Assembly: GCA_963734525.1 (NCBI GenBank)
Contig: CAVTHI010000008.1
Coordinates: 20,714 to 84,713, forward strand
Origin: an uncultured archaeon
Lineage (GTDB): Archaea; Micrarchaeota; Micrarchaeia; Anstonellales; Bilamarchaeaceae
Reading direction: 5' to 3'
DNA: 64,000 nucleotides
Part shown: piece by piece, positions 4,233-19,120 of the stretch
How positions within the stretch are numbered: the stretch's first letter is position 1
How the letters are laid out: every line of letters starts with the position of its first letter
Translations under genes and position numbers: made by a program
The notes under the pieces: model-generated
Databases searched by the model: none
What the model was told of the DNA's origin: nothing
What the model saw: the letters and a program-made list of their open reading frames with translations, nothing else

Positions 4233-4264
4233 TTTGTCATAATCGGCGCGTTATACCGGGTTTA

Positions 4265-4540
4265 TCATGTTGGGGTGACCGGATTAATACCCAAAGGTCT
4301 ATTTTGGATAAAAAAGCTGATTATTCCAATAATTAAACCCAAGGCAGTTAGTATAAGCATTAATACGGCGATAGAATTTGCATCGAGCAAAGGTTTTTCT
4401 AATAACTGATTTGAAATCGAGACGACTTCTTTAAGATGTTTAATCTTCTCATCTGAAGATAACGTTTTTAGATTGTCATTTAATTCATTTCTGAGTTTTT
4501 CTAGATTATTATGAAGCTGTTTTGGAATCCGTTTTCCCAA
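4265..4540 (-). CDS. small coiled-coil protein with C-terminal TM helix (AT-rich islet)
   Basis: 91-aa ORF. It is the last gene of a same-strand string of overlapping or adjacent small ORFs in a roughly 33% GC islet. Confidence 0.5.
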   Translation of the reverse strand: MGKRIPKQLHNNLEKLRNELNDNLKTLSSDEKIKHLKEVVSISNQLLEKPLLDANSIAVLMLILTALGLIIGIISFFIQNRPLGINPVTPT

Positions 4541-4545
4541 TTAAT

Positions 4546-4833
4546 TTATGAAATGCAATTTTTAAAGAATTGTCTACTTTTGCTAATCGATCGTTTGCGA
4601 CCGCTTCTCCAAACATCAATTAAAAGGTTATTTAGATCTGTCTCAAGTTCAGCCATTGTTGAGGGTTCTATTTTCTTTTCATCTACCTCGCACAGAGATA
4701 GATAACGCCGAGTCATCTCTGCGAATTTATTGAATGCTTGTAAAAATATTTGGCTATTTAATTCCGAATCTTTTATAGCATTTTCTAGGTCGTATGCAGA
4801 ATTTATCAAACGAGTTTTAAAATCGCTTACCAT
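4546..4833 (-). CDS. small helical hypothetical protein (AT-rich islet)
   Basis: 95-aa ORF. Its start overlaps the stop of the upstream 65-aa ORF by 7 nt. Confidence 0.5.
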   Translation of the reverse strand: MVSDFKTRLINSAYDLENAIKDSELNSQIFLQAFNKFAEMTRRYLSLCEVDEKKIEPSTMAELETDLNNLLIDVWRSGRKRSISKSRQFFKNCIS

Positions 4834-5024
4834 CTTGTTGTCACACCCACAATGGTTGAGCTAAATAAAAGTCCGATTACAATTCCAAGTATGAATATTC
4901 CTGCGTCTATAGGATTACTTATTACGAAGGCAAATATGGCTATAAGATAACCAACCGCCATTAGTGCAAACAAAATTTGTTTGTTCTTTAAGATTATATC
5001 AAGAAAGGTTATTTTCTTCAACAT
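4827..5024 (-). CDS. small two-TM membrane protein (AT-rich islet)
   Basis: 65-aa ORF with two hydrophobic helices (ILFALMAVGYLIAIFAFVI, GIFILGIVIGLLFSSTIVGV). Confidence 0.5.
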   Translation of the reverse strand: MLKKITFLDIILKNKQILFALMAVGYLIAIFAFVISNPIDAGIFILGIVIGLLFSSTIVGVTTRW

Positions 5025-5259
5025 AATCCACTCCTGAAGCAGTTAATCTTGCACTTATGAAAACAGAGCCAAGAGCTTTAAATAATGTTACTCTACCTTT
5101 TTCTTCAAGATATAACATATTCGCAGCCAATTCTTATTCAGGTATTTTTAAGACGCTTATTAGGTCATCTCGCGTACTGTGAGCGTAGGGAGTCTTAAAA
5201 TAAATATCATATAGATGTTTCAGAATTTTCTTTCGAATTTCGTCCCGGTTCTTCTCCAT
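4999..5259 (-). pseudogene. winged-helix-like small regulator interrupted by an in-frame TAA
   Basis: My own translation of the minus strand gives MEKNRDEIRKKILKHLYDIYFKTPYAHSTRDDLISVLKIPE-TAA-ELAANMLYLEEKGRVTLFKALGSVFISARLTASGVDYVEENNLS-TGA. Both halves are below the 60-aa ORF-track cutoff. Read through, they form one 85-residue wHTH-like sequence. Confidence 0.45.
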
Positions 5260-5374
5260 CTTCTCAACCCACAAAATTGATATTTGCAAATCTTCTTAAT
5301 GCCCAGTGCTTTATTCGTTTTTTTTAGTATAATAGGTACATTGATACTATTCTCATCTCAGAGTATTGGCGATT

Positions 5375-7131
5375 TCATTCCACCGTGACTGATTTCGCCA
5401 GGTTCCTCGGCCTGTCCGGGTTGATGCCCCTAAGCACGCTCGCGTGGTATGCAAGGAGCTGCAGCGGCACGATGAGCGCGAACGGATAGAGGACGGGGTC
5501 GATGCCAGGCGGTAGCGGAATCGACAGGTCGCTTTCCTTCCTCGCCTCGTCGTCGTCGGTTATGCTCAGGATGAACGCGCCCCTCGCCTTGGCTTCCCGG
5601 ATATTGCCAAGGAGCTTCTGCAAGGTCTCGTCTTTCGGGGCGAGCGCCACCACCGGGACGCCCGGCACGATGAGGCTGAGCGTCCCGTGCTTCAGCTCTC
5701 CGCCGGGATACGCCTCCGAATGGATGTATGTTATCTCCTTGAATTTGAGCGAGCCTTCGTAAGCGATGGGGACGTTCCTCCCCCTCGCGATGAAGAACGC
5801 GTTCTCCTTCCCGGCTATTTTCTGGGCGATGGCCTTGATTTCATTGTCATGGCCGAGCATCGCTTCTATAAGGCCGGATACCGGTTTCAGCTTCTCTTTC
5901 CCGTAGAACATCTTGTAGATGACCGCGAGCTGGGCCGTGAACGTCTTTGTCGCCGCCACGCCCACCTCCGGGCCCGCATTCAGGAATACGACGCAGTCCG
6001 CGAGCGTGGTTATCGTGGAGCCGACGACGTTCGTAATCGCGATTTTCCTGCATCCTTTCCCGAAGCGCAGGGCCTGCAGGACGTCGGCTGTCTCCCCGCT
6101 CTGGCTGATTGCGATTATGAGGGTCTTCTTGTCCGGTTTCGCGATGAATGGGTAGTCGCTTGCGATGTAGGCCTGGGCCACCTTGCCCGAGTTCTGCAGG
6201 AGGTAGGACAGCATGATTCCGGCGTGGAAGGAGGTCCCGGCGGCGATGATATCGACGCGCCCGCATGATTCGATAAGCTTTCCGGCCTCTGAAACGTCGG
6301 ATGCGAGGCTCTCGTTGATGAAATGCTTCTGGTCCGCGATTTCTTTGAGCATGAAGTGGGGATACCCGCCCTTCTGGGCCATTTCCACGTCCCAGTCCAC
6401 GGATATCTGCTTCCGGGTCGCCTCGGACCCGTTGTGTTCGTATATCTTGTAGCCGCTCCTGCTTATGACGGCGATGTCGCCTTCCTGGAGCGGGATGAAC
6501 GTGCGGGTGTATTTCAGCATCGCCGGGATGTCCGAGGCACAGAGCATCTCCCCCTTTCCCGCACCTATGACGAGCGGGCTGTTGCGCCGTGCCATGAATA
6601 GGCGCTCTTCGGTGTCCGAGGCGCTCATGGCGACGATGGCATACGAGCCTTCGAGCATGTTGACCGTGCGGATGAAGGCCTTGAGGAGGGGCTGCGTTTT
6701 GGCGTTCTCCTCGATAAGGTGGGCGATGACTTCGGAATCCGTCTGCGAGGCGAACTTATGGCCCTTGGATGCGAGCTCGTCCCGGAGCTTGGTGAAGTTC
6801 TCTATCACGCCGTTGTGCGCCAGCACTATCTTGCCCGAGCAGTCCGTGTGCGGATGCGCGTTCTCCCTGCATACGGCTCCGTGCGTTGCCCACCGGGTGT
6901 GGCCGATGCCGATGTTTCCGTCCATCGAGGTGAAACGGAGGGCGGCCGAAACCTCTTCCACCATGCCTTTGTCCTTGCGGATTTCAACCTCGGTGGGGGT
7001 CTGCAGGGTTGTCTGTACTTTACGCACCGCTATGCCTACCGAATCGTAGCCCCTGTATTCGAGCCTTTTCAGGCCGTCGGTTATGACCTGCGAAGCCCGC
7101 CAGGACCCACGTATCCTATTATCCCGCACAT
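5375..7131 (-). CDS. glmS: glutamine--fructose-6-phosphate aminotransferase (isomerizing), with an apparent 1-nt frameshift after codon 9
   Basis: 588-aa ORF with LKRLEYRGYDSVGIA, HTRWATHG, two SIS domains and a C-terminal ...NLAKSVTVE. The true N-terminus MCGIIGYVG is read from the ATG at 7131 in another frame. The frames meet at the CCC run at 7106-7108. Confidence 0.9.
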
Positions 7132-7164
7132 CAGTCATCAATACAATGGCAAGATAATAAAGGT

Positions 7165-8343
7165 TTATTTAATGAATTCGACTTTCGCGGTATCCCGGTC
7201 GTAGAGGGCGAGCGTTATCGTTTTCCCCATGCCGGACAAGTCGGCGACATCCTGCGAGCTCCGAAGGAGCCTCTCCCGCACGGCCCGAAGGGTTTCCACG
7301 TCCGTATCCAGTATCACGATATGCCTGTTGCCGTCCTTCTCCCCCACTCCCGGCACATGGCCGCTGTCCAGGAAGCCGGCGTATCTCAATGACCCGATGG
7401 CTGAGAGGGAAAGGGGCTGGCCGCTGGATGCCGCCCTGAAGTCCTCCGTCACGCAGAAAATCTCGTTCGGACTGGAATCGAATATCTGACGTGGGCCGTT
7501 CACCCGGCCAAGCCGGTAGGGGTCGTAGTATATTATCGCATGCGAATACTGGTTTTCAGGCGTTATCCCGTTCGACATGGAATACTCCCACGTCCTGATG
7601 GTGGCTGCCCTCAGTTCCTTGAAGATGTCGTCGGGCACGGCCTGTGTGATGGACAGCCATTCGAGGTCGAAACGGCCTTCCGTCCATCCGCTCCAGTTCT
7701 CGAACAGGGGGTGCACATCGTTGCCCAAGCCTGCCGAATCCAGGATTGCAGAGGCGTTGAGGGCCTGTGTCCTAGCATTCCATCTCGAGAGCATATCTGC
7801 GTCTTCTATGATGGCGACCCCGTGGGGAATGGAATCGATGATGTGGTCGATTTGCGGGTCCCTGGTCTTTTCGCCCTTGATATGGAATTCGTGCGCCGTC
7901 TTCTCCCCGCCGCAGCTCTTGTGAGTCGACACATAGCCCCTGCCGAACGGGTCCAGGACCTTGAAGACCCCCCCTTTCCTGACGACAGAGCCTGCGGTCC
8001 GCTCATGTATCACCGGGTGGCGGAGCAGGGTCATGAGATTGAAAAGCGCGGATCTTGCATCCACGCATTGCTTCACCCCTATCATGTACTCGCCGGGGGA
8101 CGGATGCAGAAGGGGGCCGAAAGATTCGGTGAATTCGGAGACGACCGAGACCACGCGCTCATTGCCGAGCAGCAGCGCCCTCTTGGACAGCTCGATGGGT
8201 ATGGGTTTCTTGTCCCTCATCGCCCCGTATACTGTTTCTATCATGGGCCGCTCCGCATGATTGCGGTAGAAATCGTGTTTCCGTTCATAGAACGTTCTAT
8301 TTGCCTCTGCCAGATAACGTATTTTCGGGCTCGTCATTTTCAT
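7165..8343 (-). CDS. two-domain beta-carbonic-anhydrase-like protein, paralog A
   Basis: 392 aa. The N-half carries LLLGNERVV, KQCVDAR (C-x-D-x-R) and THKSCGG (H-x-x-C-G). The C-half (HAIIYYDP...SSPNEIFCVTED...RHIVILDTD) repeats the pattern without the Cys ligands. It is clearly paralogous to 8521..9720. Confidence 0.6.
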   Translation of the reverse strand: MKMTSPKIRYLAEANRTFYERKHDFYRNHAERPMIETVYGAMRDKKPIPIELSKRALLLGNERVVSVVSEFTESFGPLLHPSPGEYMIGVKQCVDARSALFNLMTLLRHPVIHERTAGSVVRKGGVFKVLDPFGRGYVSTHKSCGGEKTAHEFHIKGEKTRDPQIDHIIDSIPHGVAIIEDADMLSRWNARTQALNASAILDSAGLGNDVHPLFENWSGWTEGRFDLEWLSITQAVPDDIFKELRAATIRTWEYSMSNGITPENQYSHAIIYYDPYRLGRVNGPRQIFDSSPNEIFCVTEDFRAASSGQPLSLSAIGSLRYAGFLDSGHVPGVGEKDGNRHIVILDTDVETLRAVRERLLRSSQDVADLSGMGKTITLALYDRDTAKVEFIK

Positions 8344-8483
8344 CTACCTGGAAGCCCCATAGCAAAGCCAAACCCAGTTGAGGCTGGGGCCGGTTTTGCT
8401 AGGGGGTTGTTTCCGTATTATATAGTGTTTAAAAGTGCTTATAATGGTATCGATTAAATACATATTGAAACTTATTTTGACAC

Positions 8484-8501
8484 AATATAATAATTAATAT
8501 A
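8484..8501 (+). promoter_or_regulatory. TATA-like box for 8521..9720 (divergent AT-rich promoter region 8410-8505)
   Basis: aatataataattaatata is centred about 28 nt upstream of the ATG at 8521. Further TATA-like elements (ttatatagtgtttaaaag) could serve the divergent gene. Confidence 0.4.
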
Positions 8502-8520
8502 CCGGCCGTGGAATCACATC

Positions 8521-9720
8521 ATGGCAAACAGACTTCCACAGGGGATGCGGCATGTTGCGGCGCTCCACCACGAGGAGCATGTGCGGAGGCACGCCATATT
8601 CAAGAGCTACCATGCCGAGGACCAGCATAAGCGGATACATGAGATGATACGGGAACGGAAGATGCTGGACCCTATAGAATCTGCGTACGCCCTCCAGGAG
8701 GGGAACAAGGGGCATGCGGCCCGCGTGTCCGGCTTCCAGGGGGAATTGCCGGAAAAGATAAAGACGCTCATGCTGGTATGCGCCGATGCGCGCATGGGGG
8801 GGATGTTCGATTTCGATGATTTCGCGAGGCGCGGCATCGCCGCGGTGTATGTGGCCGGCAATGTGTCCGACTTCCTGAACACATCCGGGGTGAAGGAGGT
8901 CTTCAGGCGAATGGACAAGGATTCCTCGATAGTCATCGCCGGCCACGCCAAATGCGGCGCCGTCCATTGCGCATCGGAGAAGGAGCAATACTCCCACCTC
9001 AAGAACATCGCCGTCCTCCTCCACCTGGTCTCGCCGACCGGGGAGCTCGACAACCTGCGGGCGCAGGCCGGGACGCTCGCCGCGAACGAAGCCTTCCAGA
9101 AGCTCACCGCCAGGAAGAACGTGCGAATCGTCAGCGCTTTCGTCGATATCGCGCACCATGAGCCCCAGATACGCCTGGTGGACGGCGACAAGGCGCAGGA
9201 GCAGGATAGGGAGCTCATCGACAGGCTTGACCGGGCCTTCCGGCGTTCGAACGGAGGCATGGACCTGTCTTCGCACCAGTTCGCGCATGCCGTAGTGATA
9301 TCCGGGCCGGCGCTCCCGTTCGACGCGCGTGAGATATTCTCCGCGGGCTCGAACGAGATATTCTGCGTGACCGGCGGGGATTATGGGGGGAAGAAGCACA
9401 AGGGCCACCTGTCCGAGGCCGAGATTGCCACGGTGGAGATGGCGTCGCTGGGGATGCTCGACGAGCAGTCGGTGGCGTCAATCGAGTATTCGGTCGAGAA
9501 GAACAAATCCCAGCATATCCTCCTGCTCCATACAGACCTCGCGGTCATCGATGCATGGGAAGCGCAGTTGATAAGGAAAAGCGACATCGTCTCGAACGCC
9601 CTCATCGAAGGCAGGCTCGAGATAACGACCGCCGTGTACGATTCGAGCACCGGCCGGGTGACGATGGTGCGCCACCTGGTGAACGAGGACGCCGCGGCCG
9701 CGATTTCCTCGAAGGTTTGA
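8521..9720 (+). CDS. two-domain beta-carbonic-anhydrase-like protein, paralog B (closest to canonical beta-CA)
   Basis: 399 aa. The N-half has LQEGNKGHA, LMLVCADARMGG (C-x-D-x-R), AAVYVAGNVSD (xAGN) and SIVIAGHAKCGAVHCA (G-H-x-x-C-G-A), in the order and spacing of beta-class CAs such as archaeal Cab. The C-half (HAVVISGPALPFDAREIF..SNEIFCVTGG..HILLLHTD..TTAVYDSSTGRV) is a degenerate second copy. Confidence 0.7.
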   Translation: MANRLPQGMRHVAALHHEEHVRRHAIFKSYHAEDQHKRIHEMIRERKMLDPIESAYALQEGNKGHAARVSGFQGELPEKIKTLMLVCADARMGGMFDFDDFARRGIAAVYVAGNVSDFLNTSGVKEVFRRMDKDSSIVIAGHAKCGAVHCASEKEQYSHLKNIAVLLHLVSPTGELDNLRAQAGTLAANEAFQKLTARKNVRIVSAFVDIAHHEPQIRLVDGDKAQEQDRELIDRLDRAFRRSNGGMDLSSHQFAHAVVISGPALPFDAREIFSAGSNEIFCVTGGDYGGKKHKGHLSEAEIATVEMASLGMLDEQSVASIEYSVEKNKSQHILLLHTDLAVIDAWEAQLIRKSDIVSNALIEGRLEITTAVYDSSTGRVTMVRHLVNEDAAAAISSKV

Positions 9721-9767
9721 CGGGCGGCCCTTTCCAGCCGCACCCCCGAACAGGGTTTCCCAGCCCA

Positions 9768-10598
9768 TCAATCCAGCAGCGCCAGGACAGACGGCTCCCT
9801 TATGCGCCTGTTGAGCACGGATTTGTGGTCTTTCGGGAAATCCTTTATCGACTGGTGTATCATCTTCCTGAGGTCTGGCTCGACAGTGGAGACATACGAG
9901 TTGATGCCTTCCGCTTCGACTTCGGGAACGGTCAGGACGTGCAAATGGACGCCCAGGTGCTGCATGATTGTGCTCATGATAGGGTCGTTCTTGACCTTCC
10001 TCCGGATGTTATTGGCTTCGAGGACGTCCTTGCCGAGAAGGTAATAGTCGCGGAGGCCGAGGGTGACTATCGAATAGCATATGCCCCCCAGCTTATAGGG
10101 CCCGAAACTGCTGAACGGATTAAGCACGTTGGAGCCCGTCGCCAGGAACACGCTGCCCGCGACGTCGTAGTCGCTGGACTCCTTCAGGTTGAGGTATCGG
10201 ATTAGCGTTTCCCTCGGGTTGGCGATGTCCGGCGCGCATATAAGGCCGCAAACCGGCTTCTGGATGCTGCTCCGGCGAATCCTTTCGGGGTGGTTCTCCG
10301 GAAGGTGGTCCATGACGTAGCGCATGAGGCCCGCCATGTCGTCCAGTATCGTGTGGACGTGGAGGTTGTCGTCGATGCGTATCTTCAGGCCGGTCCGGTA
10401 ATTGAGGACGCCGCAGTTGACATGCACCGGAATCCGCTCCAGCTCGTTGTCGGCGTCCAGCGCCGTCCTCAGGTACTTCTTGGATTTCAGCGGCTCCTTG
10501 ACCGTGTCTATGCTGGTGAGGAAATCCTCGGCGCTCGTGCCCTCGTGGGCATAGACGTTTTTCAATAGGAGATAGAGGTCATCGTCGTTATCCAGCAT
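9768..10598 (-). CDS. beta-CA-like degenerate (C-terminal-type) domain protein, paralog C part 2
   Basis: 276 aa. VCGLICAPDIANPRETL...VAGSVFLATGSNV...GGICYSIVTLGLRDYYLLGKD parallels the C-halves of paralogs A and B. Its start overlaps the stop of 10588..11133 by 11 nt next to an A-rich run, so the two may be one gene. Confidence 0.5.
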   Translation of the reverse strand: MLDNDDDLYLLLKNVYAHEGTSAEDFLTSIDTVKEPLKSKKYLRTALDADNELERIPVHVNCGVLNYRTGLKIRIDDNLHVHTILDDMAGLMRYVMDHLPENHPERIRRSSIQKPVCGLICAPDIANPRETLIRYLNLKESSDYDVAGSVFLATGSNVLNPFSSFGPYKLGGICYSIVTLGLRDYYLLGKDVLEANNIRRKVKNDPIMSTIMQHLGVHLHVLTVPEVEAEGINSYVSTVEPDLRKMIHQSIKDFPKDHKSVLNRRIREPSVLALLD

Positions 10599-11133
10599 GA
10601 TTGTCTTTTCTTTCTTTGCGGCTTTTATCGAAGAAGGAGATTTCCGGCTTTATGTTGTAGAGCAGGCCCCGGATGGTTTTCCAGGCCTCGTTGGAATGGC
10701 TCATGCCGCAGTTGATGGCCGAGTCTGGGTTGATCATCTCCACCTCGGTTTCGGGATTGTACACGAGCTTGTTGACATCCGGCACCTTTATGTCCGCATG
10801 GCCGGAAATCTGGACGACCGTCTTGTGCAGGACGCCCGGACCCTGGTCCACCCTCACTTTTTCCCCGAATTCGCTCAGGCTGGAGTTGAGTCCGCCCTTG
10901 ATGATGTCCTTGATTTCGATATAGGATTGCTTGTTCACGACCGAGCCGGCGATGGTCACCCGGGAAATGAGCACCTTTACCCCGCGGGCGGCGTATTCCA
11001 GGATGAGGCTCCGCAAAATCTGATTTTCCACCGCACCCCCGTCGCGCGCGTCTGCGCAGCGGACCTGGATGACGTGCTGCACCTCGTCAACCGGATAGTT
11101 GACATTGAATGATAGCGTTGCTCTGGTTCCCAT
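10588..11133 (-). CDS. beta-CA-like N-terminal-type domain protein, paralog C part 1
   Basis: 181 aa with VIQVRCADARDGG (C-x-D-x-R), VVQISGHAD and a distal AINCGMSH. It is the first gene downstream of the NuoB-like gene on the same strand. Confidence 0.5.
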   Translation of the reverse strand: MGTRATLSFNVNYPVDEVQHVIQVRCADARDGGAVENQILRSLILEYAARGVKVLISRVTIAGSVVNKQSYIEIKDIIKGGLNSSLSEFGEKVRVDQGPGVLHKTVVQISGHADIKVPDVNKLVYNPETEVEMINPDSAINCGMSHSNEAWKTIRGLLYNIKPEISFFDKSRKERKDNHAG

Positions 11134-11241
11134 ATGTACTCAGTCCGGGTACATCCGGCCCAATCCCATGCGGGATGGCGGCCGTCTCGGCTATGGCTGC
11201 TGCCATTCCGAACCCCCCGGAAAATAGTTGGTTGCTATGGA

Positions 11242-11820
11242 TTATATGGATTTCGGTTTTGCGTTTTTTGGCGGACTGCGGGTTTCTTCGCCCTTCCGCT
11301 TCTTGTCGATGGCCATGCCGGCTTTCAGTATCCCCGCGAGGAGCTCGTATGGGTCCGGCGGGTTGCCCGGGACTTTCACGTCAACCGGGACGACGCTCTC
11401 GACGCGCCCGTCCCCGGCCAGGGCGTAGCTCCCCTTGAACGGCCAGCCCGTGCATGCCCCGTCCCCTGCGGCGACGACGGCGCGGGGTTCGGCCATGGCT
11501 TCGTAGCTTTTAATCAGCGCGACTTTCATGTTCTGGGTGACCGGCCCGGTGACTATGAGGACGTCCGCGTGCCTCGGGGAGGCTACAAAGTGCACGCCGA
11601 AGCGCTCCGCATCGACGCGGGGGGCCATCATGAGCTGCTCCTCGAGCTCCACGTCGTTCGGCGAGCCGGCATCCACCATGCGCACGTGGATGGAGCGCGA
11701 GAACAGCGACATAGGCCGCTGCCTGAGCAGGAGCGCGACCTCGCGCACCGCAGGGTCGGGCGATTTCTCCGACACGCGGTCCGGGAAATATTCGAATGCG
11801 AGCTTCAGTGTTTCAAGCAT
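11242..11820 (-). CDS. NuoB/HycG/HyfI-like small subunit lacking the [4Fe-4S] ligands
   Basis: 192 aa. ERFGVHFVASPRHADVLIVTGPVTQNM...VPVDVKVPGNPPDP is unmistakably the NuoB/group-4 small-subunit fold. The Cys-ligand positions read DAGSPND, GDGACTGW and PGNPPDP, so 3 of 4 Cys are lost. Confidence 0.85.
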   Translation of the reverse strand: MLETLKLAFEYFPDRVSEKSPDPAVREVALLLRQRPMSLFSRSIHVRMVDAGSPNDVELEEQLMMAPRVDAERFGVHFVASPRHADVLIVTGPVTQNMKVALIKSYEAMAEPRAVVAAGDGACTGWPFKGSYALAGDGRVESVVPVDVKVPGNPPDPYELLAGILKAGMAIDKKRKGEETRSPPKNAKPKSI

Positions 11821-11829
11821 ATCAATCCC

Positions 11830-13407
11830 TCACAGGTCTGTTCCGGCATACGACATATTGAAACTCTTGTTTATCAGCGGGAAATCCGGCACGATGTCGC
11901 CGGGGACGAGGTTCTCGGCGCCGCGCCAGTTCTTGAACGACGCGGTCCTGCATGCGAGCCGCTCGATTTTGCCGTCATCGGAGAGCTCGACGAGGAACGC
12001 ACAGCCCCCGCGCGGAGCCTCGGCCCAGCCGACCCCGGTTCGCACGGATTCCTCGCTATCGGCCACCGCAGGTTCGCACTGCAGCTTGCCTGATGGCATG
12101 TGGGACGCGAGCCAGTTCACCAGCCGGACGGATTCCTTGACCTCCGCGAGTTTCACGAGGAATCTCGCGAGGACGTCGCCGGTCTTTTCCGTCGATTCCC
12201 TGAAGCCCGCATCCGCATAGGCCGAATAGGGAAGCGATTTGCGCAAATCGCAGCTAACCCCGCATGCGCGGGCGACAGGGCCCACGAGCGCGAGGTCTGC
12301 CGCTGCCTTCTGGGGGACGGCGCCGGTCGAGAAAACGCGGTTGAGGTATGTCGATGACTCGAGCGTGAAGCGCTCCACGCGCGCAAGCCGCTTCTCGAAA
12401 TCCGCCAGCGTGGAAGCGATTAAGGCCAGCTTCTCTTTCGGAAGGTCGCCGCTGACGCCGCCAACGACGCACATACCGCGGAGGAATCGGCTCCCCGTGA
12501 CTTTCCGGTTGAGCCTCATCATGTCCTCGCGGAGGACTGCGAACCTTGATGCGGACATCGTGAAGCCGACATCGGTCGGCATGCCGCCGAGGTCCGAGAG
12601 GTGGCTGTATATGCGCTCGAGCTCCAAGAGGATTGCGCGTATGTATTCGGCGCGCTCCGGGACCTTGAGGCCGCAGGCGCGCTCGACCGCATGGCAGTAG
12701 GCGACCCCGTTCGCGACGGACTCGTCCCCGGAAATCTGCTCAATCACGGGCAGTATTTCTACGGCGGCCTTGCCTTCGACGCTTTTCTCGACCCCCCGGT
12801 GCAGGTAGAACATGCGGGTTTCCAGCTTGTTTATCTGCTCGCCCACGATATGGAACCTGAAGTGCCCCGGCTCTATTATGCCGGCGTGCACCGGGCCGAC
12901 CGCCAGCTCGAATTCCCCTTCGGCCCCGGTGCCCTTTATCACGTAATCATCGTTCTTCTGCCGGACCAAGGCCTTGCCGCCGACCGGATGCTTGTCAGGC
13001 ATGCCGCTTTCAGGGTGGAAGATGAGCGGCCTGGAATCGGGTATCCCGGAGAGTCTCAGGCCGGTTAGGTCCTGCATCTTGCGCTCGTCCCATAACGCGG
13101 CGTTCACCGTCGCAGATAGCGCGGCGAACTCCTTCCCCTTGGCCCGGAGTATGAGCATCCGGCCTATCGCAGGGACGCGGAACAGGTAGGAGACCTCGAA
13201 TGCGCCCCCGGGGCGGGACGAGATGAAGCCTGAATCGAAAATCGCCCCGTTCGCCATGCTAGCCTTGCAGGCGGGGACGAGGTCGCTCTGGCGGAGGGAC
13301 GCCCAGATGCAGGCGCCGCGCTCGCTCCATGCCTCGATGGCCCCCTGCTTGAGTGATTTTTGGATTATTCCGGAGAATTTTTTCGTTTCGTCAGTCATAT
13401 CATCCAC
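11830..13407 (-). CDS. NuoC-NuoD fusion / HycE-HyfG-like large subunit lacking NiFe-binding cysteines
   Basis: 525 aa. GPVHAGIIEPGHFRF, FYLHRGVEK and EAPRG are family motifs. The N-terminal RxCGxC position reads IEQISGDESVANG. The C-terminal DPCxxCxx(H/R) position reads KSFNMSYAGTDL-stop. Confidence 0.85.
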   Translation of the reverse strand: MDDMTDETKKFSGIIQKSLKQGAIEAWSERGACIWASLRQSDLVPACKASMANGAIFDSGFISSRPGGAFEVSYLFRVPAIGRMLILRAKGKEFAALSATVNAALWDERKMQDLTGLRLSGIPDSRPLIFHPESGMPDKHPVGGKALVRQKNDDYVIKGTGAEGEFELAVGPVHAGIIEPGHFRFHIVGEQINKLETRMFYLHRGVEKSVEGKAAVEILPVIEQISGDESVANGVAYCHAVERACGLKVPERAEYIRAILLELERIYSHLSDLGGMPTDVGFTMSASRFAVLREDMMRLNRKVTGSRFLRGMCVVGGVSGDLPKEKLALIASTLADFEKRLARVERFTLESSTYLNRVFSTGAVPQKAAADLALVGPVARACGVSCDLRKSLPYSAYADAGFRESTEKTGDVLARFLVKLAEVKESVRLVNWLASHMPSGKLQCEPAVADSEESVRTGVGWAEAPRGGCAFLVELSDDGKIERLACRTASFKNWRGAENLVPGDIVPDFPLINKSFNMSYAGTDL

Positions 13408-14866
13408 CGATTACTTCCTCGACCACCATCGAGATGAGCCGGATGAGCGGTTCGGGCGGCGTCAGGCCGAAATAGACCGCGAGCAGCAAAAGCGCCAGGA
13501 ACGGCACGACCATCAACAGGGATGGTTTGAATTTTTCGACCCCTTCGGGAATTTTGCCGAAGCACATGCCGGAAGCGCGGTAAAGCAGGCTCGCGAATGT
13601 GATCGTCGTGCAGATTATGAACAGGAGGGCGACCAGGTACTGGCCCCCGGAAAGCGAAGCCGCGAGGACTCCCACCTCCGAGATGAACGTGCCGAAAGGC
13701 GGGCTGCCGGAAATCCCGACCGCGATGAAAACGAAGGGGATTGCGACCACCGGGACCACTTGGGCGGCGCCGCTGATGAGCCGTATCTCCTTGGTCTTGA
13801 ACGCCAGCGCTATCACGCCGCTTGAGAGGAAGGCGAGGGGCTTGGCGAGGGAATGGGACACCATGTGGAAGAGCGCGGCGAACATGCCTATCGGCCCCCC
13901 GAGGCCGAACGCGAGGACGACTATCCCCATGTTCTCGACGCTGGAATAGGCCAGCATGCGCTTGAGGTTGTCCTGGTAGAAGAGGCGCAACGCGCCCACG
14001 GCAAGCGAGAGCATGCCGAACACGATGAGCAGGCTGGACGCGAAAGACACGAGCTCAGGGTACGGGGCCAATATCTGGTAGGCCCTCACAATCCCGTGGA
14101 ACGCGATGTTCAGCAGGACGCCGGATAGCAGGGCGCTGACAGGCGTCGGGGCCTGGCTGTGCGCGTCCGGAAGCCACACGTGCAAAGGCACGAGGCCTAC
14201 CTTCGTACCGAACCCGACGAGTATGAATGCGAAGGCGATTTTCATGAAGAACAGGTTCACGCCGGTATGCGGGGCGAGGAGGCTCGGCCAGTCCCCCCAT
14301 GATGCCGAGTCCGGCGGAAGGACCGCGTACATGAGGAACATGATGCCTACGAGCGCGAGCAGGATGCCCACCGAGTTTATTATGAAGAACTTCCAGGCCG
14401 CCTCAATCGAGCTGGTCGTGTTATAGAAGCTGATGAGGAAGACGGACGCCAGCGTCGTGGCTTCAATCGCCGCCCACATCACGACGATATTCGAGGCGAG
14501 GGGGGCCACAAGCATCGCCGCGAGGAAAAACGAGAGCAGGCCGTAATATGTCCCCAGCCGGCTTTCGTCCACGGTCTTTTCCTCGACCTCGTGCCTGAGG
14601 TAGCCGATGGAATAGATGAATACGAAAAACGACACCAGGGCGGTCAGGGAAGTGAAAAGCGCGGAGATGGAATCGAGGTAGAGGAGGCCGTAGGACTCGA
14701 CGTACGGCACCGGCGCCTGGATGAAGCCCCATGTCACGAAGAGCGCGAAGAATGCTGCGAGCGAAGCGCCTGCCACCGCGGCCAGTTCCGCGGCCCTGGG
14801 GTGCTTGGACAGCAGGAACGCAAGGATTCCGGAAATGATCGGCGGCAGGATTATGAGTTCAAGCAT
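13400..14866 (-). CDS. antiporter-like subunit (NuoN/HyfF/MrpD family)
   Basis: 488 aa, polytopic, with AAIEATTLAS, GFGTKVGLVPLHVWLPDAHSQAPTPVSALLSG and HMVSHSLAKPLAFL. Confidence 0.85.
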   Translation of the reverse strand: MLELIILPPIISGILAFLLSKHPRAAELAAVAGASLAAFFALFVTWGFIQAPVPYVESYGLLYLDSISALFTSLTALVSFFVFIYSIGYLRHEVEEKTVDESRLGTYYGLLSFFLAAMLVAPLASNIVVMWAAIEATTLASVFLISFYNTTSSIEAAWKFFIINSVGILLALVGIMFLMYAVLPPDSASWGDWPSLLAPHTGVNLFFMKIAFAFILVGFGTKVGLVPLHVWLPDAHSQAPTPVSALLSGVLLNIAFHGIVRAYQILAPYPELVSFASSLLIVFGMLSLAVGALRLFYQDNLKRMLAYSSVENMGIVVLAFGLGGPIGMFAALFHMVSHSLAKPLAFLSSGVIALAFKTKEIRLISGAAQVVPVVAIPFVFIAVGISGSPPFGTFISEVGVLAASLSGGQYLVALLFIICTTITFASLLYRASGMCFGKIPEGVEKFKPSLLMVVPFLALLLLAVYFGLTPPEPLIRLISMVVEEVIGG

Positions 14867-14870
14867 GGGT

Positions 14871-15557
14871 TCACCTTTTCTCTATGAGTTCATCGAGTTC
14901 TTTCGTATCGAGGGTGCCGACCGTGCCGCGTATCTTGAGCGCCAGGAGCATGGCGACTATTATCAGGATCACCACGTCGAAAAGGGCGACCGCGTCGCTT
15001 ACGAAGGGCAGCTGTATCGGAAGGGCTATCGGAAGCAGGACCACGCCGTTCTCCATGAGGAGGAATCCGAGGAGCTGGAGCAGGAGGTTCGTCTTGACCG
15101 CGATTATGAGCATGCCTATCAGGATGAGCGACAGCACGAGCGGCAGCATGATGGTGGTCCCGCCGAGTATCGACGAGAGCAGGAACGCGAGGACGATGAG
15201 TATGCCGGAGTATGCCAGGATGCGCGCCGGGGTGACGTAGGAGCCGGTGAAGAGCGGGTCGAAGTCGAGGTTAAGCCTCAGGTCCTCCTTCGTCGCACGG
15301 AACACGTTGTAGAAGCGCGTGGGCAGCAGCTTCACTTCGCCGGGCATCACCCTGAACAGGTTGAAGAGCATGACCGGGATGAGCAGGAATTTCAGGATGA
15401 AGGTCGTGCCCACGCGGAAATACAGGTCCGGGGCGCCTTCACCCAGGGCGGACACGGCGAAGATGATGACGAGGCATGCGCTCTGTATCATGTAAAGCTC
15501 GACGCTGCGGTTGAATGTCGCGCTGAAGACGAAATACAGGGAGCTCAGCAGCATCAC
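14871..15557 (-). CDS. HyfE-like small polytopic membrane subunit
   Basis: 228 aa, about 7 TM. Its position between the NuoH-like and NuoN-like genes matches E. coli hyfE. Start is GTG 15557 or ATG 15554. Confidence 0.6.
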   Translation of the reverse strand: MMLLSSLYFVFSATFNRSVELYMIQSACLVIIFAVSALGEGAPDLYFRVGTTFILKFLLIPVMLFNLFRVMPGEVKLLPTRFYNVFRATKEDLRLNLDFDPLFTGSYVTPARILAYSGILIVLAFLLSSILGGTTIMLPLVLSLILIGMLIIAVKTNLLLQLLGFLLMENGVVLLPIALPIQLPFVSDAVALFDVVILIIVAMLLALKIRGTVGTLDTKELDELIEKR

Positions 15558-15574
15558 GAATACGAGCGCCGTTT

Positions 15575-16534
15575 CTATGGGCGACTCCGCCGGCCCCGGT
15601 GCCGGACAGCGTCGTGAGGAACGAGAGCAGTGCGAGGAGCATCGCGAGCATCAGGAGCTCGCCGACCTTGAACAGGCGCACCTTCACGCTGATGCTCTCC
15701 ACGACCGCGGTGAGCATCGCGAGGAGAAGCGAGACGCCGAGCACGAACACCGAGCGCATGATTGGGTCCGGCAGACGAGAGCGGCAGGAATATTATCGGG
15801 ATGAGCGCGAATAGGAGGAAAATCTTCGACGCATGGGCCCATTCGACGAAGGCGAGGCCGGGCCCGGAGTTCTCGAGTATCATCGCTTCGTGGACCATGG
15901 TGAGCTCGAGGTGCGTGGCCGGGTTGTCGAACGGAAGGCGTCCGGTTTCCGCCAGGATGATGATGAACAGGCCGAGCGCCGCTATCCAGTGCGCGGGCGA
16001 CAGCGCAAGCGCATCCCATGCGATGCCGCCTGATGCCAGCGGGGCGATGACGTTGAAGCCGCCCGATGCCGCCAGGAAGAGCACGACCGCGAAAAGAGCG
16101 GGCTCGATGAGCACGGAATAGAGCATCTCCCTGCTCGAACCCAGCCCGCCGAACGAGCTTCCCGCGTCAAGCCCGGAAAGCGCCGTGAGGAAGCGCCCGA
16201 TGGAGAAAAGGTATGCGAATACGATGATGTTCACCGCGAGGAATGAGACCGGCGAGAGGACGGGCAGCATGACGGACGCTATCGCGACCGAAACGAATCC
16301 GGCTACCGGGGCGATGACGAAGATGAACGACGTGGTGGAGCTCTTGGATTCGCCCTTTGAAAGGAGCTTGGCCAAATCCAGGTAAGGCTGGATTATGGGG
16401 CTGCCGGACCTCCCCTGCAGGCGGGCCTTCACCTTGCGCATGAGCCCGACGATGAGCGGGGAGAAGCCGAAGATGAAGATTATCTGGAGGAATGCCAGGA
16501 GAGCGGGTGTGGTGTCAGCAGCCATAAGGATCAC
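15575..16534 (-). CDS. NuoH/HyfC/HycD-like membrane subunit, apparently frameshifted near 15765-15790
   Basis: The N-terminal 255 aa are convincing (RKVKARLQGRSGSPIIQPYLDLAKLL, ETGRLPFDNPATHLELTMVHEAMILENSG). After ...IPIIFLPLSSAGP the sense continues in the frame of ORF 15439..15759 (IMRSVFVLGVSLLLAMLTAVVESISVKVRLFKVGELL...). The true 3' end is uncertain. Confidence 0.75.
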   Translation of the reverse strand: MILMAADTTPALLAFLQIIFIFGFSPLIVGLMRKVKARLQGRSGSPIIQPYLDLAKLLSKGESKSSTTSFIFVIAPVAGFVSVAIASVMLPVLSPVSFLAVNIIVFAYLFSIGRFLTALSGLDAGSSFGGLGSSREMLYSVLIEPALFAVVLFLAASGGFNVIAPLASGGIAWDALALSPAHWIAALGLFIIILAETGRLPFDNPATHLELTMVHEAMILENSGPGLAFVEWAHASKIFLLFALIPIIFLPLSSAGPNHALGVRARRLASPRDAHRGRGEHQREGAPVQGRRAPDARDAPRTALVPHDAVRHRGRRSRP

Positions 16535-18513
16535 AGCAGGGCATATATCAGTACTAATCCCAGCGTCACCATCAGGTAAACCAGGTAATCGCTTAGTTTT
16601 CCGGTCTGGAAAAATCTGGAGTAGGGCGCGAGCGCCTGGTACACGAGGGATATCGGCGTATATATCGTATAGTTGAACAGCTTGGACCCGTAAGCCGCCG
16701 GCTTTGACAGCGGGTCAAGCCAGACGTTGAGGCTCCGGGTTACCGGCATGGCGAATCCCGCCGCAGAATACTGCATGCGCGAAGTCACCGGGATGAAGCC
16801 GCAGGCCCATGTGTCGCCGGATTCCTGGCGCCTGCCCCTGCCGGAGAGCCAGGCCACCCCTCCGAGAAGGACCGAGCCAAGCACGAGCGCGAGCAGGATG
16901 GTGGACGTCTGGAGCCCCTCGGATGCGGCCACCAGCTGGAAGCTGGATGCTGCGGTGAAGCCGAAGGAATCGAAAATGCCGAGCGTTGCCTGCGCGATGA
17001 CCGCCGGGAATGCGCCTGCGGCGATGCATGCCAGCCCGAGAAGCGCCATCCCGGCCAGCATCGACGCGGGGGCCTCCTTCGCCTTCAGGGCATGAGGGCT
17101 CCGCGGAAGGCCGAGAAACGGGATTCCGAACGCCTTTACGAACGCCCCGACCGCGAGCGCGCTGGTGAGGGCGAGGAAAAGGACGGCCAATGAGAGGATG
17201 AGGGAAACCGGCGCCGGGATGCTTACGCCCCCGAGCAGGGCCTCGAATGTGAGAAGCTCGCTCACAAAGCCGTTCAGCGGGGGGATTGCGGCGATGGATG
17301 CGGAACCAAGGAGGAACAGCACGGCGGTGACGGGCATGAGTTTTGCCAGCCCGCCGAGCTCTTCGATGTTCCGCTCGTGCGTCGAATACGCTATGCTCCC
17401 TGCGCCAAGGAAAAGGAGGCTCTTGAACAGGGCGTGGTTGAGCGTGTGGTAGAGGCAAGCGAAAAGGGCGAGGGCGGCCAGCTCAGGAAGCTTCAGGGAC
17501 GCGAAAATCACCGCGGCCCCGAGGCCGATGAAGATTATCCCGATGTTCTCGATGCTGTGCATGGCGAGCAGGCGCTTCATGTCGTGCTCCAGCAGGGAGT
17601 AAAGGACCCCGAGCACGGACGAGAACATTCCGAGGACGAGGATTGCGACGCCCCACCACATCTCGTTCCCGGTGCCCACGATTCCCAGGAATCCGAAGAG
17701 GACGCGCACGAGGCCGTATATGGCGGTCTTGAGCATGACGCCGGACATGAGCGCCGATACGTTGCTCGGAGCCTGCGGGTGCGCGAGGGGGAGCCAGATG
17801 TGGAGCGGTATGATGCCGCATTTAGAGCCGAACCCCACCAGGGCGAGAACGAAGACCGCGTCCAGAAGGAGCGGGGCGTACGAAGCCTGCGGGAAGGAGC
17901 TGAAATCCGCCGACCCGGAGCCGCTCGCAAGTATGAGGAACATCAGTATGAGCGCGACGGCGCCCACGTGGGTGATGACGAGGTAATTGAAGCCGGCGGA
18001 TTTGACGCCCTCCTCCTTGTGCTCGAAGGTGACAAGGAAGAACGAGCTCAGGGCCATGGCTTCCCAGAGGACCAGGAATAGCACGGCATTCTGCGCGGCG
18101 ACGACGAGAATCATGGAGAGCAGGAAGATGTTGTACAGGAATGCGAAGCGGCTCAGGCTGTAGCCCTTTTCCCGGTATTCGTCGGCATAGGAAATCGAGT
18201 ATATGGAAACCGCGGCCCCGACGAATGCGATGATGGATACGAAAAGGCCGGAGAGCGCGTCGATGCTGAATGAAAGCGAGCCGAGCTGCCCGAGCTCGGC
18301 GAGGGTGAAGGCCTGCGTGCCTGCGCCGAGGAAGGATGCTATGCCGGCCGCAAGGGCTGTTATGCTCCCCGCCAGAGCGAGGCCGAACCCCAGGATTGAG
18401 CTTATGCGGGGGTTCCGCGCGGAAAGGAGGGGCAGGAATGCGCCTGCGAGGAAGAAAAGCGACGAGACAATTAGTGCGGGCTGACCTAAAATATTCATAT
18501 CGAGGGGAGTCAT
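16531..18513 (-). CDS. antiporter-like subunit (NuoL/HyfB/HycC family)
   Basis: 660 aa with LWEAMALSSFFLV, GSKCGIIPLHIWLPLAHPQAPSNVSALMSGVMLK and HTLNHALFKSLLFLGAGS. It is the first gene of the operon. Confidence 0.9.
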   Translation of the reverse strand: MTPLDMNILGQPALIVSSLFFLAGAFLPLLSARNPRISSILGFGLALAGSITALAAGIASFLGAGTQAFTLAELGQLGSLSFSIDALSGLFVSIIAFVGAAVSIYSISYADEYREKGYSLSRFAFLYNIFLLSMILVVAAQNAVLFLVLWEAMALSSFFLVTFEHKEEGVKSAGFNYLVITHVGAVALILMFLILASGSGSADFSSFPQASYAPLLLDAVFVLALVGFGSKCGIIPLHIWLPLAHPQAPSNVSALMSGVMLKTAIYGLVRVLFGFLGIVGTGNEMWWGVAILVLGMFSSVLGVLYSLLEHDMKRLLAMHSIENIGIIFIGLGAAVIFASLKLPELAALALFACLYHTLNHALFKSLLFLGAGSIAYSTHERNIEELGGLAKLMPVTAVLFLLGSASIAAIPPLNGFVSELLTFEALLGGVSIPAPVSLILSLAVLFLALTSALAVGAFVKAFGIPFLGLPRSPHALKAKEAPASMLAGMALLGLACIAAGAFPAVIAQATLGIFDSFGFTAASSFQLVAASEGLQTSTILLALVLGSVLLGGVAWLSGRGRRQESGDTWACGFIPVTSRMQYSAAGFAMPVTRSLNVWLDPLSKPAAYGSKLFNYTIYTPISLVYQALAPYSRFFQTGKLSDYLVYLMVTLGLVLIYALL

Positions 18514-18658: not shown

Positions 18659-18679
18659 CATTCATGATGAGATGATACC

Positions 18680-19117
18680 ATGGAGAAAGTGCTCATTTTG
18701 GCCGGAAGCAAAAGCGACGAGGATGTGGCAAGGCAGGCCATGGACGTCCTTGCGGCGTTCAGCGTCCCGTACCGCTTTGAAATCGCGTCGGCCCACAGGA
18801 ATCCCGAGAAGGTCGACAGGCTGGTCAGGGAAACGACAGCGCAGGTCTTCATCGCCATCGCGGGGATGAGCGCCGCGCTCCCGGGCGTGGTCGCCGCGAG
18901 GACCACTAAACCGGTCATCGGGGTGCCCGTCAACGCGTCGCTCGACGGCCTGGACGCACTCATGTCGGTGGCCCAGATGCCGCCGAACGTGCCTGTCGCG
19001 GCGGTCGGAATCGGGATGGGCAAGAACGCCGCGCTCCTGGCGGTGCAGATGCTCGCCCTCGGCGATGCGGCGCTTGCGGCGAGGCTCGCCGAATTCAAGG
19101 AAAAACTCAAGCAGTGA
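18680..19117 (+). CDS. purE: N5-carboxyaminoimidazole ribonucleotide mutase (PurE)
   Basis: 145 aa with ILAGSKSD, ASAHRNP, IAGMSAALPGVVAARTTKPVIGVPV and LMSVAQMPPNVPVAAVGIG. Confidence 0.9.
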   Translation: MEKVLILAGSKSDEDVARQAMDVLAAFSVPYRFEIASAHRNPEKVDRLVRETTAQVFIAIAGMSAALPGVVAARTTKPVIGVPVNASLDGLDALMSVAQMPPNVPVAAVGIGMGKNAALLAVQMLALGDAALAARLAEFKEKLKQ

Positions 19118-19120
19118 ACA

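Follow-up and report, generated by a model that had tools for sequence, protein, structure and literature searches.

Double-length beta-carbonic anhydrase relatives beside a complex-I-like membrane module in a Micrarchaeota archaeon

The DNA analysed here is a 64,000-nt stretch (the window) of contig CAVTHI010000008.1 (GCA_963734525.1) from a Micrarchaeota archaeon. It encodes three double-length relatives of beta-carbonic anhydrases (beta-CAs), A, B and C, beside a complex-I-like membrane module that lacks redox cofactors. All four ORFs (A, B and the two fragments of C, C1 and C2) were present at the coordinates and on the strands given below, and no hydrophobic segment was found in A, B or C. 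We consider it probable that the locus encodes three cytoplasmic, zinc-type, beta-CA-like single-chain pseudo-dimers, that C is tied to the module and that the split of C is an assembly error. The three families are rare, with 15–22 clusters each in 5.8 billion proteins, and every member with a named source comes from Micrarchaeota. No functional name was found on any member, and the Pfam profiles CsoSCA and DUF2309 matched none of the three families. The statement in an earlier, sequence-only reading that this architecture falls outside every characterised CA subfamily thus holds.

Domain architecture of A and B

Paralogue B (8521..9720, forward strand) is a protein of 399 aa that matched Pfam Pro_CA with 46.3 bits (E 6.9e-12), above the gathering cut-off of 25.7 bits. 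Its first domain (residues ~50–220) contains C87-x-D89-x-R91 (8779..8793) and H142-x-x-C145 (8944..8955), both with checked codon coordinates, as well as N62 and G113-N114; the full beta-CA signature claimed for B was therefore recovered. The motif residues are invariant across 16 B-type sequences. The second domain (residues ~245–388) carries F267-D268-x-R270, H337 and Q253 (9277..9279), and lacks the Cys ligands.

Paralogue A (7165..8343, reverse strand; 392 aa) has 22 relatives. The motifs read earlier as QCVDAR and THKSCGG correspond to C93-x-D95-x-R97 (8053..8067) and H141-x-x-C144 (7912..7923), which are present and invariant in 20 A-type sequences; domain I also holds an IHERTAG motif, and the family comparison revealed an invariant Q265 (7549..7551) in domain II. 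A Pfam search with A itself gave no match, and about 10 of 20 family members touched Pro_CA at E<=1. The best PDB matches of the family profile were the beta-CAs 1ym3 and 2a5v, which were weak (E 0.2). The kinship of A with B is much clearer, extending over the full length in BLASTP (E 2e-15) and in a profile–profile comparison with hhalign (99.7%, E 4e-27); 26 of the 36 A and B members match Pro_CA. Taken with the Pro_CA score of B and the invariant motifs, such agreement goes far beyond chance.

The first domains of A, B and C each hold the complete beta-CA set of putative Cys/His/Cys zinc ligands and an Asp-Arg dyad. The second domains have the same fold, with Phe and Leu in place of the two Cys ligands, and retain Asp/Arg or Arg alone; an invariant Gln stands directly before their first strand. 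This agrees with the earlier description of a C-terminal half that repeats the fold without its Cys ligands. At the sequence level, internal duplication was undetectable in any of the families (E 0.04–0.2).

The two AF2 models obtained had pLDDT values of 87.9 (B; pTM 0.91) and 90.6. The model of B consists of two alpha/beta domains, each with a beta1–beta5 pattern, and its three best PDB matches in Foldseek are known single-chain two-domain beta-CAs: the tandem CA of Porphyridium (1ddz, E 1.8e-10) and the CsoSCA entries 8thm and 2fgy (E ~1e-5). It is highly improbable that each protein is instead a single beta-CA domain interrupted by a long insertion. In keeping with such an insertion, HMMER matched the last 40 residues of B with the C-terminal strands of Rv3588c, and the Pfam match spans profile positions 2–121 only, in the first half of B. 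However, the model of B shows a complete beta4–beta5 hairpin (202–219) closing domain I, followed by a full second beta1–beta5 domain (257–388), and the top structural matches, aligned over more than 420 columns, are CAs with two domains. The CsoSCA-type intramolecular pseudo-dimer proposed in the sequence-only reading, with an active first and a Cys-less second domain, is thus supported for B by its predicted structure and for A by homology.

Gene C and its frameshift

Gene C occupies two ORFs on the reverse strand. C1 (10588..11133), the N-terminal fragment, corresponds to domain I, and its final 11 codons lie outside the true frame. It contains the motifs noted earlier, C26-x-D28-x-R30 (11044..11058), H112 (10798..10800) and N141-C142-G143-M144 (10702..10713), along with A62-G63. 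C2 (9768..10598), the C-terminal fragment, comprises a linker region and domain II, in which family comparison identified three invariant residues, Q (10260..10262), R (10212..10214) and F (10146..10148). Read in its true frame, C2 extends upstream to ~10622.

The gene had been called split or broken, and alignment of the DNA to a relative (L003) located the break in an AAAA run (10623..10626, reverse strand) with one A too many. Deleting one A yields an uninterrupted ORF of 454 aa, 91.2% identical to P0038 without gaps. In relatives C is a single gene of 454 aa, intact in L018, L003 and L010. A true pseudogene, or a gene that really comes in two pieces in the host, is an unlikely reading of C. 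The frameshift is present in the sequence as given, and an ATG in the downstream frame overlaps the upstream stop (ATGCTGGATAA), so that both halves could be made. Yet the site is a homopolymer run, the fragments show no other damage, and two further genes within the same ~10 kb are also frameshifted, namely the NuoH-like gene of the module and glmS, whose product has a catalytic N-terminal Cys. L018 and L003, which include a relative at 91–97% identity, carry all three of these genes intact. A one-base assembly error, rather than biology, is therefore the most likely cause of the split.

C was described in the sequence-only reading as one of three clustered paralogues, a description that stands for A and B and needs qualifying for C. 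In pairwise comparison with B, the CADAR region alone matched (E 0.006), and C gave no Pfam match to Pro_CA, CsoSCA or DUF2309 and no match among PDB sequences. Comparison of domain profiles between B and C related the first domains to each other (91.7%, E 8e-7) and the second domains to each other (54%, E 1.3e-4), while nothing was found for the crossed pairs. B and C share the same domain order, and C is a remote homologue, not a close paralogue.

Despite this divergence, the motif residues are invariant across 16 C-type sequences. In a set of 71 full-length C-type proteins sharing <=50% identity, the most conserved positions in domain I were C26 (0.99), D28 and R30 (0.97), and H112, C142 and G143 (1.0); in domain II they were Q291 and F329 (0.99 each). 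A 29-residue insert lies between the His and the second Cys (H-x29-C). The top Foldseek match of the C model was again 1ddz, a borderline hit (E 1e-3, probability 0.96), followed by further beta-CAs at probabilities of 0.75–0.91. A pseudo-dimer is accordingly supported more weakly for C, on the basis of its model.

We regard it as distinctly unlikely that the zinc sites, that of C especially, serve another small-molecule reaction (hydrolysis of COS or CS2, for example), or that C has no catalytic role and caps the module structurally. COS/CS2 enzymes share the same ligands, so motifs cannot separate them from CAs, and the COS hydrolase entries 3vqj and 3vrk are among the structural matches of B; C, moreover, is very divergent and carries its insert in the active-site His...Cys segment. 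However, the COS hydrolases rank far below ordinary CAs, nothing encoded nearby suggests sulfur metabolism, and all five catalytic residues are near-absolute in the 71 divergent C-type proteins, which argues against a cap.

The membrane module and its neighbourhood

C follows directly downstream of the five genes of a complex-I/Mbh-like module on the same strand. The module begins with a NuoL-like antiporter-type subunit (16531..18513), followed by a NuoH-like gene that also includes a fused NuoK(4L)-like portion (14871..16534; ~550 aa and one gene in relatives), which in the window is split by its frameshift into 14871..15557 and 15575..16534. Next is a NuoM/MbhH-like antiporter-type subunit (13400..14866), with the positions of TM5 Glu, TM7 Lys and TM12 Glu all occupied. 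The NuoCD/HycE-like large subunit (11830..13407) lacks all four NiFe-binding Cys (SGDES for CGIC, SYAG for CYSC), and the NuoB/MbhJ-like small subunit (11242..11820) lacks three of the four Cys of the [4Fe-4S] cluster (GSPNDVE for GSCNGCE, PGNPP for PGCPP). These Cys-less motifs are themselves conserved in six lineages.

The association of C with the module recurs. C-type genes flank it in four of six informative lineages (the window with L018 and L003; L010; L005-7; L013), in differing positions and orientations, and L010 has another two CA-like paralogues after its NuoB-like gene, on that gene's strand. Within the window, a GC-rich spacer of 108 nt (11134..11241, reverse strand) separates the NuoB-like gene from C. 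No TATA-like box was evident in it, as would fit C being co-transcribed with the module. The earlier suggestion of an operon-encoded C is plausible.

It is possible, though doubtful, that A, B and C are independent soluble CAs without a tie to the module, their neighbourhood being synteny inherited in a narrow clade. A and B are divergently arranged around an AT-rich intergenic region (8344..8520) with several TATA-like boxes, which probably holds their own promoters, and distant members of both families (L014-L017) are not adjacent to the module. The module is also absent near the C-type genes of two lineages (L008/9 and L021), and C retains its Gln and has no membrane segment. eRF1, PurE and glmS likewise recur near the locus, and a Bilamarchaeum eRF1-PurE ... 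glmS neighbourhood has no module, but holds an A-type gene together with an ordinary Pro_CA protein of 190 aa. As the linkage is seen within one phylum only, part of it could be due to synteny by descent. However, C-type genes have stayed beside the module through at least four rearrangements, at both ends and on both strands. The same-strand CA-like genes directly after the NuoB-like gene in L010, the spacer before C and a module that, without redox cofactors, needs another partner reaction also speak for a tie.

Related systems and possible function

CsoSCA, the beta-class CA of alpha-carboxysomes, resembles A, B and C in joining a catalytic beta-CA domain and a ligand-less beta-CA-like domain in a single chain, with one active site per pseudo-dimer. 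C shares with it the wide separation of His and second Cys, which in CsoSCA is H-x10-C, whereas A and B have the canonical H-x-x-C. Unlike CsoSCA, the three proteins lack a long helical N-terminal domain and escape its Pfam profile, and the host is a DPANN archaeon without carboxysome genes at this locus. The tandem-repeat enzyme of Porphyridium purpureum (1ddz), the best structural match of the B and C models, also has two beta-CA domains per chain, but both of its repeats bind zinc, whereas the second domains of A, B and C lack both Cys ligands.

In canonical beta-CA dimers the partner subunit contributes the residue at this Gln position to the active site, and in DabA the partner domain does so. 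DabA, a protein of the DAB inorganic-carbon pumps, has two beta-CA-like domains, a single Cys2His site and an Asp-Arg dyad in domain I, an insert between His and second Cys, and a gene that adjoins one for a NuoL-type ion-translocating protein (PMC13144422; bioRxiv 10.64898/2026.05.01.722082); the equivalent of the Gln, Leu658 in DabA2, lies in beta-CA-like domain II (PMC13144422). By this analogy, each of A, B and C would have a single active site where its own two domains meet. They differ from DabA in giving no PF10070 match and in lacking its 280-residue N-terminal domain and membrane 'finger' helix pair. C keeps the active-site Gln where DabA has Leu, and its partner would be a five-subunit complex-I-like module instead of a single DabB.

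The module itself, with a NuoD/HycE-like subunit without CxxC NiFe motifs, NuoB-like and NuoH-like subunits and two antiporter-like subunits, resembles the Ehr complexes (for energy-converting hydrogenase-related), whose function has been reported as unknown (PMC10284858). The likeness is one of subunit make-up and motifs, and the NuoB-like subunit differs in lacking three of four FeS Cys; we came across no paper that connects Ehr with carbonic anhydrases. Precedents for a CO2-hydrating or CA-like protein on a complex-I-type membrane arm, also cited in PMC13144422, are the CupA/CupB CO2-uptake complexes of cyanobacterial NDH-1 and the gamma-CA subunits of plant complex I. Cup proteins and gamma-CAs have folds unrelated to A, B and C, and cyanobacterial NDH-1 and plant complex I keep their redox cofactors, unlike the module.

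Most likely, A and B would be ordinary soluble enzymes interconverting CO2 and bicarbonate, and C would work together with the module. The latter has lost its NiFe site and most FeS ligands while keeping the charged residues of its antiporter-like subunits, and may link CO2 hydration by C, for bicarbonate trapping or pH control, to ion translocation. Such coupling, plausible by analogy, would be similar to that of DabAB or of the NDH-1/Cup complexes of cyanobacteria. Against it, C keeps the bicarbonate-binding Gln (Leu in DabA) and has no membrane 'finger', which speaks for an ordinary reversible CA. Micrarchaeota are not known as autotrophs, so that there is no evident need for a CO2 pump. 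The locus nevertheless hints, without proof, that CO2 hydration and ion pumping may be linked in a Micrarchaeota archaeon.

Three carbonic-anhydrase-like genes and a split reading frame

All four open reading frames listed by the sequence-only reading are present in the window. A lies at 7165..8343 on the minus strand (392 aa) and B at 8521..9720 on the plus strand (399 aa), while the third copy, C, occupies two minus-strand frames, C1 (10588..11133, 181 aa) and C2 (9768..10598, 276 aa), that overlap by 11 nt (ATGCTGGATAA). The motifs quoted for them are likewise all present, with codon coordinates verified. The glmS gene is located downstream of A, and a five-gene complex-I-like cluster is found upstream of C1 on the same strand. 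The spacer between A and B is AT-rich and contains TATA-like boxes; the spacer before C, 108 nt long, is GC-rich and has no TATA-like box.

C had been described as split, or broken, and C1 and C2 proved to be one gene interrupted by a single extra A. A search with the joined sequence returned single proteins of 454–468 aa covering 100% of the query, with P0038, an intact full-length relative, at 89% identity. DNA alignment with an intact orthologue located one extra base in the run GATAAAAGCC, and removal of one A at 10623..10626 restored an uninterrupted reading frame of 454 aa, 91.2% identical to P0038 without gaps. Two other genes in the window are also frameshifted. In glmS (7100..7168, minus strand), the N-terminus is broken across frames, MCGIIGYVG with the catalytic Cys being read in one and ASQVITDGLKRLEYRGYDS in another, probably through an assembly indel. 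In the NuoH-like/4L-like gene, a frameshift at 15557..15650 (minus strand) gives reading frames at 14871..15557 and 15575..16534, where all relatives have a single gene of ~550 aa. C, glmS and the NuoH-like gene are all intact in two related loci, L018 (a contig 91–97% identical to the window) and L003. The split of C is therefore a probable assembly indel. A real pseudogene is unlikely, since two more genes are frameshifted and a close relative has C intact.

Between a PQQ beta-propeller gene and glmS, a 1.1-kb island (4250..5350) has 29–36% GC in a 59% GC genome and holds a string of small minus-strand reading frames of 43–95 aa. It is possibly foreign DNA, because relatives have different genes there. 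A 473-aa reading frame at 18662..20083 (minus strand) was rejected as a spurious antisense of the eRF1 gene (19121..20347, plus strand); its apparent homologues elsewhere all overlap eRF1. Across all 64 kb of the window, neither tRNA genes nor Rfam families at gathering score were found.

Ligands and predicted fold of A and B

The three proteins had been proposed to resemble beta-carbonic anhydrases (beta-CAs). In a search with the Pfam Pro_CA profile (PF00484), this held for B, which scored 46.3 bits against a cut-off of 25.7, residues 83–202 aligning to profile positions 2–121 of 156. A weak match to an NCBIfam CA subfamily was obtained for B as well. Neither the window's A nor either C fragment matched Pro_CA at E ≤ 10. 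A can be assigned to the family through its relatives only: A and B align over their full length (BLASTP E = 2e-15), their family profiles match each other at 99.7% (E = 4e-27), and 26 of 36 A and B family members match Pro_CA at E ≤ 1. Among 5.8 billion proteins searched, B-type sequences formed 15 clusters and A-type sequences 22. None of these clusters is functionally named, and those with names all belong to Micrarchaeota or Bilamarchaeum.

The putative Cys, His, Asp and Arg residues pointed out from the sequence are invariant in both families. Invariant positions are C87, D89, R91, G113, N114, H142 and C145 in the B family and C93, D95, R97, the block I112–A117 (IHERTA), H141 and C144 in the A family. 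The zinc-ligand pattern Cys...His-x-x-Cys, with an Asp-x-Arg dyad after the first Cys, has canonical spacing in both.

Each protein had further been described as an intramolecular pseudo-dimer whose second half lacks the Cys ligands. Structure prediction for B agrees with this description. The AlphaFold2 model, computed with a 36-sequence alignment (pLDDT 87.9, pTM 0.91), has a beta-CA fold in two alpha/beta units, the first with strands at 80–86, 106–110, 131–142, 202–209 and 216–219, and the second with strands at 257–261, 280–284, 332–337, 367–374 and 379–388. In Foldseek comparisons with the PDB, the top matches of the model were the three beta-CAs known to carry two domains in a single chain: 1ddz from Porphyridium (E = 1.8e-10), Cyanobium CsoSCA (8thm, 9.2e-6) and Halothiobacillus CsoSCA (2fgy, 1.2e-5), both CsoSCA structures aligning over more than 420 columns. 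About 30 ordinary beta-CAs rank next, matching one domain each, and 30 beta-CA chains lie at E ≤ 1e-3. Profiles of domain I and domain II did not match each other significantly in any family (E 0.04–0.2), so that the claim of two domains rests on the predicted structure. HMMER aligned the C-terminal tail of B to the last strands of Rv3588c, hinting at a single domain with a large insertion, but we rejected this arrangement because the AlphaFold2 model comprises two complete domains.

Domain II has no Cys ligands in the A, B or C families. In B, Phe replaces the first Cys (F267-D268-x-R270) and Leu the second (H337-T-D-L), and the A family shows a further difference where the His would be. A second zinc site is therefore not expected. 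Domain II instead holds a Gln just before its first strand, Q253 of B and Q265 of A, that does not vary in either family and occupies the Q-x-P ... C-x-D-x-R position of canonical beta-CAs. Because domain I alone retains the ligands and domain II alone the Gln, each chain would have one zinc site, at the domain interface. In DabA2, the equivalent of this Gln is Leu658, a residue of domain II, itself beta-CA-like, with the zinc site lying in domain I (PMC13144422).

The divergent C-type family and its relation to CsoSCA and DabA

C failed every profile test. C1, C2 and 15 C family members had no Pfam or NCBIfam match, none of the 15 matched Pro_CA, and the C family profile retrieved nothing from the PDB at E ≤ 10. 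Whole-length hhalign comparison found nothing between C and A, and only 25% between C and B. When 1.84 billion representatives were searched exhaustively with the profile, 117 clusters (50% identity) were returned, 68 of them at E ≤ 1e-30, with no ordinary beta-CA among the matches. C can therefore be named only as beta-CA-like.

The residues that suggest this name are strongly conserved. They are among the best-conserved positions of all across 71 full-length members: conservation in the first half is 0.99 for C26, 0.97 for D28 and R30, 0.99 for G63 and 1.0 for H112, C142 and G143, and in the second half 0.99 for Q291, 0.90 for R307 and 0.99 for F329. The ligand residues are thus 97–100% conserved, but with the spacing H-x29-C. 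With domain-wise profiles and the deeper C alignment, domain I of B matched domain I of C at 91.7% (E = 8e-7) and domain II matched domain II at 54% (E = 1.3e-4), whereas the crossed pairs gave nothing. In the domain II alignment, Q253, R270 and F281 of B pair with the conserved Gln, Arg and Phe of C. An AlphaFold2 model of P0038 (pLDDT 90.6, pTM 0.88) shows two beta-alpha units, and its Foldseek match to beta-CAs is borderline, with 1ddz as the best PDB hit (E = 1e-3, probability 0.96) and other beta-CAs at 0.75–0.91. Unlike A and B, C has 29 residues inserted between its His and its second Cys (H112 ... N-C142-G-M), a linker of ~100 residues consisting of helices and a hairpin, and a C-terminal tail that is missing in shorter, more distant relatives. 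None of the three proteins has a membrane-like segment (maximal 19-residue hydropathy ≤1.24, against 2.67 for a membrane control).

CsoSCA and DabA had been considered as possible families for these proteins, and A, B and C belong to neither. Of 51 scanned proteins, comprising A, B, C and relatives, none matched the CsoSCA profile (PF08936), and the DabA profile (PF10070, DUF2309) likewise gave no match, at E ≤ 10 for the C family and E ≤ 1 for the A and B families. Carboxysome shell and Rubisco genes were absent from the window flanks and the related loci. The likeness to CsoSCA lies in the build: the models of B and C, together with the Cys-less domain II of all three families, place a catalytic and a zinc-less duplicate domain in one chain. 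The three proteins are predicted to function like beta-CAs and appear to be built like CsoSCA. DabA has two beta-CA-like domains but one site, and is bound to a NuoL-type subunit (PMC13144422). Two of its features, a membrane-inserted helix pair and a Leu in place of the active-site Gln, are both lacking in C, whose Gln is 99% conserved. The genomic context of C is DabA-like in that, in four of six informative lineages, C-type genes lie directly beside a module containing two PF00361 subunits; the partner of DabA is a single DabB, whereas that of C would be a five-subunit module.

Beta-CAs are normally dimers of identical chains. To our knowledge, a fused two-copy single chain occurs in only a few lineages, namely CsoSCA, DabA and a red-algal enzyme, and of these only CsoSCA and DabA retain one active site. 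A, B and C represent three rare, lineage-restricted families of pseudo-dimeric beta-CAs, unannotated and, where named, confined to Micrarchaeota, in which the same solution would have arisen; the C-type family is unseen by current profile libraries. Its 117 clusters could be annotated as beta-CA-like rather than hypothetical.

The neighbouring Ehr-type module and a possible coupling to C

The module upstream of C1 (11242..18513, minus strand) encodes, in order, a NuoL-like subunit, a fusion of NuoH-like and 4L-like subunits, a NuoM/N-like subunit, a large subunit resembling NuoC-NuoD/HycE and a small subunit resembling NuoB/MbhJ. Compared with HycE, the large subunit has SGDES for CGIC and SYAG for CYSC; in the small subunit, aligned with MbhJ and HycG, GSPNDVE stands for GSCNGCE and PGNPP for PGCPP. 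The module lacks all four NiFe cysteines and three of the four FeS cysteines. The replacement motifs SGDES.AN, N.SYAGTD, GSPNDVELE and PGNPP are kept in six Micrarchaeota lineages, which argues for a selected, cofactor-less Ehr-type variant. Judged by alignments to HycE, MbhL and MbhJ and by its Pfam domains, the module can be classed as Ehr-type: its large subunit has no NiFe CxxC and is accompanied by NuoB-, NuoH- and antiporter-like partners. In the NuoM-like subunit, the TM5 Glu, TM7 Lys and TM12 Glu are retained. What Ehr complexes do has been reported as unknown (PMC10284858). According to PMC8561730, Kadnikov 2020 describes a [NiFe] hydrogenase of group 4e from a Micrarchaeota genome. 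No literature linking Micrarchaeota or Ehr complexes with carbonic anhydrase was found.

Across the related loci, C-type genes remain fairly persistently linked to the module in spite of rearrangements; for A and B the link is loose. The C-type gene directly follows the small-subunit gene on the same strand in the window, L018 and L003, is divergent from the first module gene in L010 and in L005–7, and is convergent at the small-subunit end in L013. In L008/9 it lies away from the module, and L019 and L020 are too short to judge. L001 lacks C and has a B-type gene and a divergent A-like gene, convergent with the module, while L014–L017 carry more distant A and B members away from it. All these contexts come from one phylum, so shared ancestry inflates the count. 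A locus search with the narrower alignment A7 yielded only three genome loci and two metagenome loci.

Additional CA-like genes were observed at several of these loci. At L010 (1..2461), the NuoB-like gene is followed on its own strand by two further and more divergent paralogues, of which one has 419 aa and the other is truncated where the contig ends; both match the B-family profile only at 5e-15 and 1.5e-7, which points to more subfamilies than A, B and C. At L021 (1364..5317, also L022), two distant C-type genes in tandem, of 472 and 381 aa, stand divergently beside a Na+/H+ exchanger (PF00999), before eRF1, with no complex-I-like module in view. The Bilamarchaeum locus L014 (8763..11188) has the same eRF1-PurE ... 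glmS surroundings and combines PurE, an ordinary 190-aa Pro_CA protein and an A-type gene near eRF1 and glmS, with no module. In L003, a PurE gene also lies beside the module.

A and B probably catalyse reversible CO2 hydration in the cytoplasm, which would supply bicarbonate or CO2 to carboxylations; a PurE gene is a recurring neighbour. C, in turn, may cooperate with the membrane module. Modelled on DAB and Cup, the pairing of a cofactor-less module with a CA-like partner provides a testable hypothesis for Ehr-type function. DabA is a strong precedent for such cooperation; because C lacks the DabA membrane finger and keeps the Gln, its coupling would need to work differently. We regard a real coupling between C and the module as rather unlikely. 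Equally tentative is the specific proposal in which the C-type protein would serve the cofactor-less Ehr-type module as its peripheral catalytic subunit, the two jointly forming an ion-gradient-coupled directional CO2 hydratase. If true, this would be a third independently assembled type of vectorial carbonic anhydrase, after NDH-1/Cup and DabAB, and would for the first time assign a function to an Ehr-type complex, here in a DPANN archaeon with a need to trap bicarbonate or control pH in a tiny cell.
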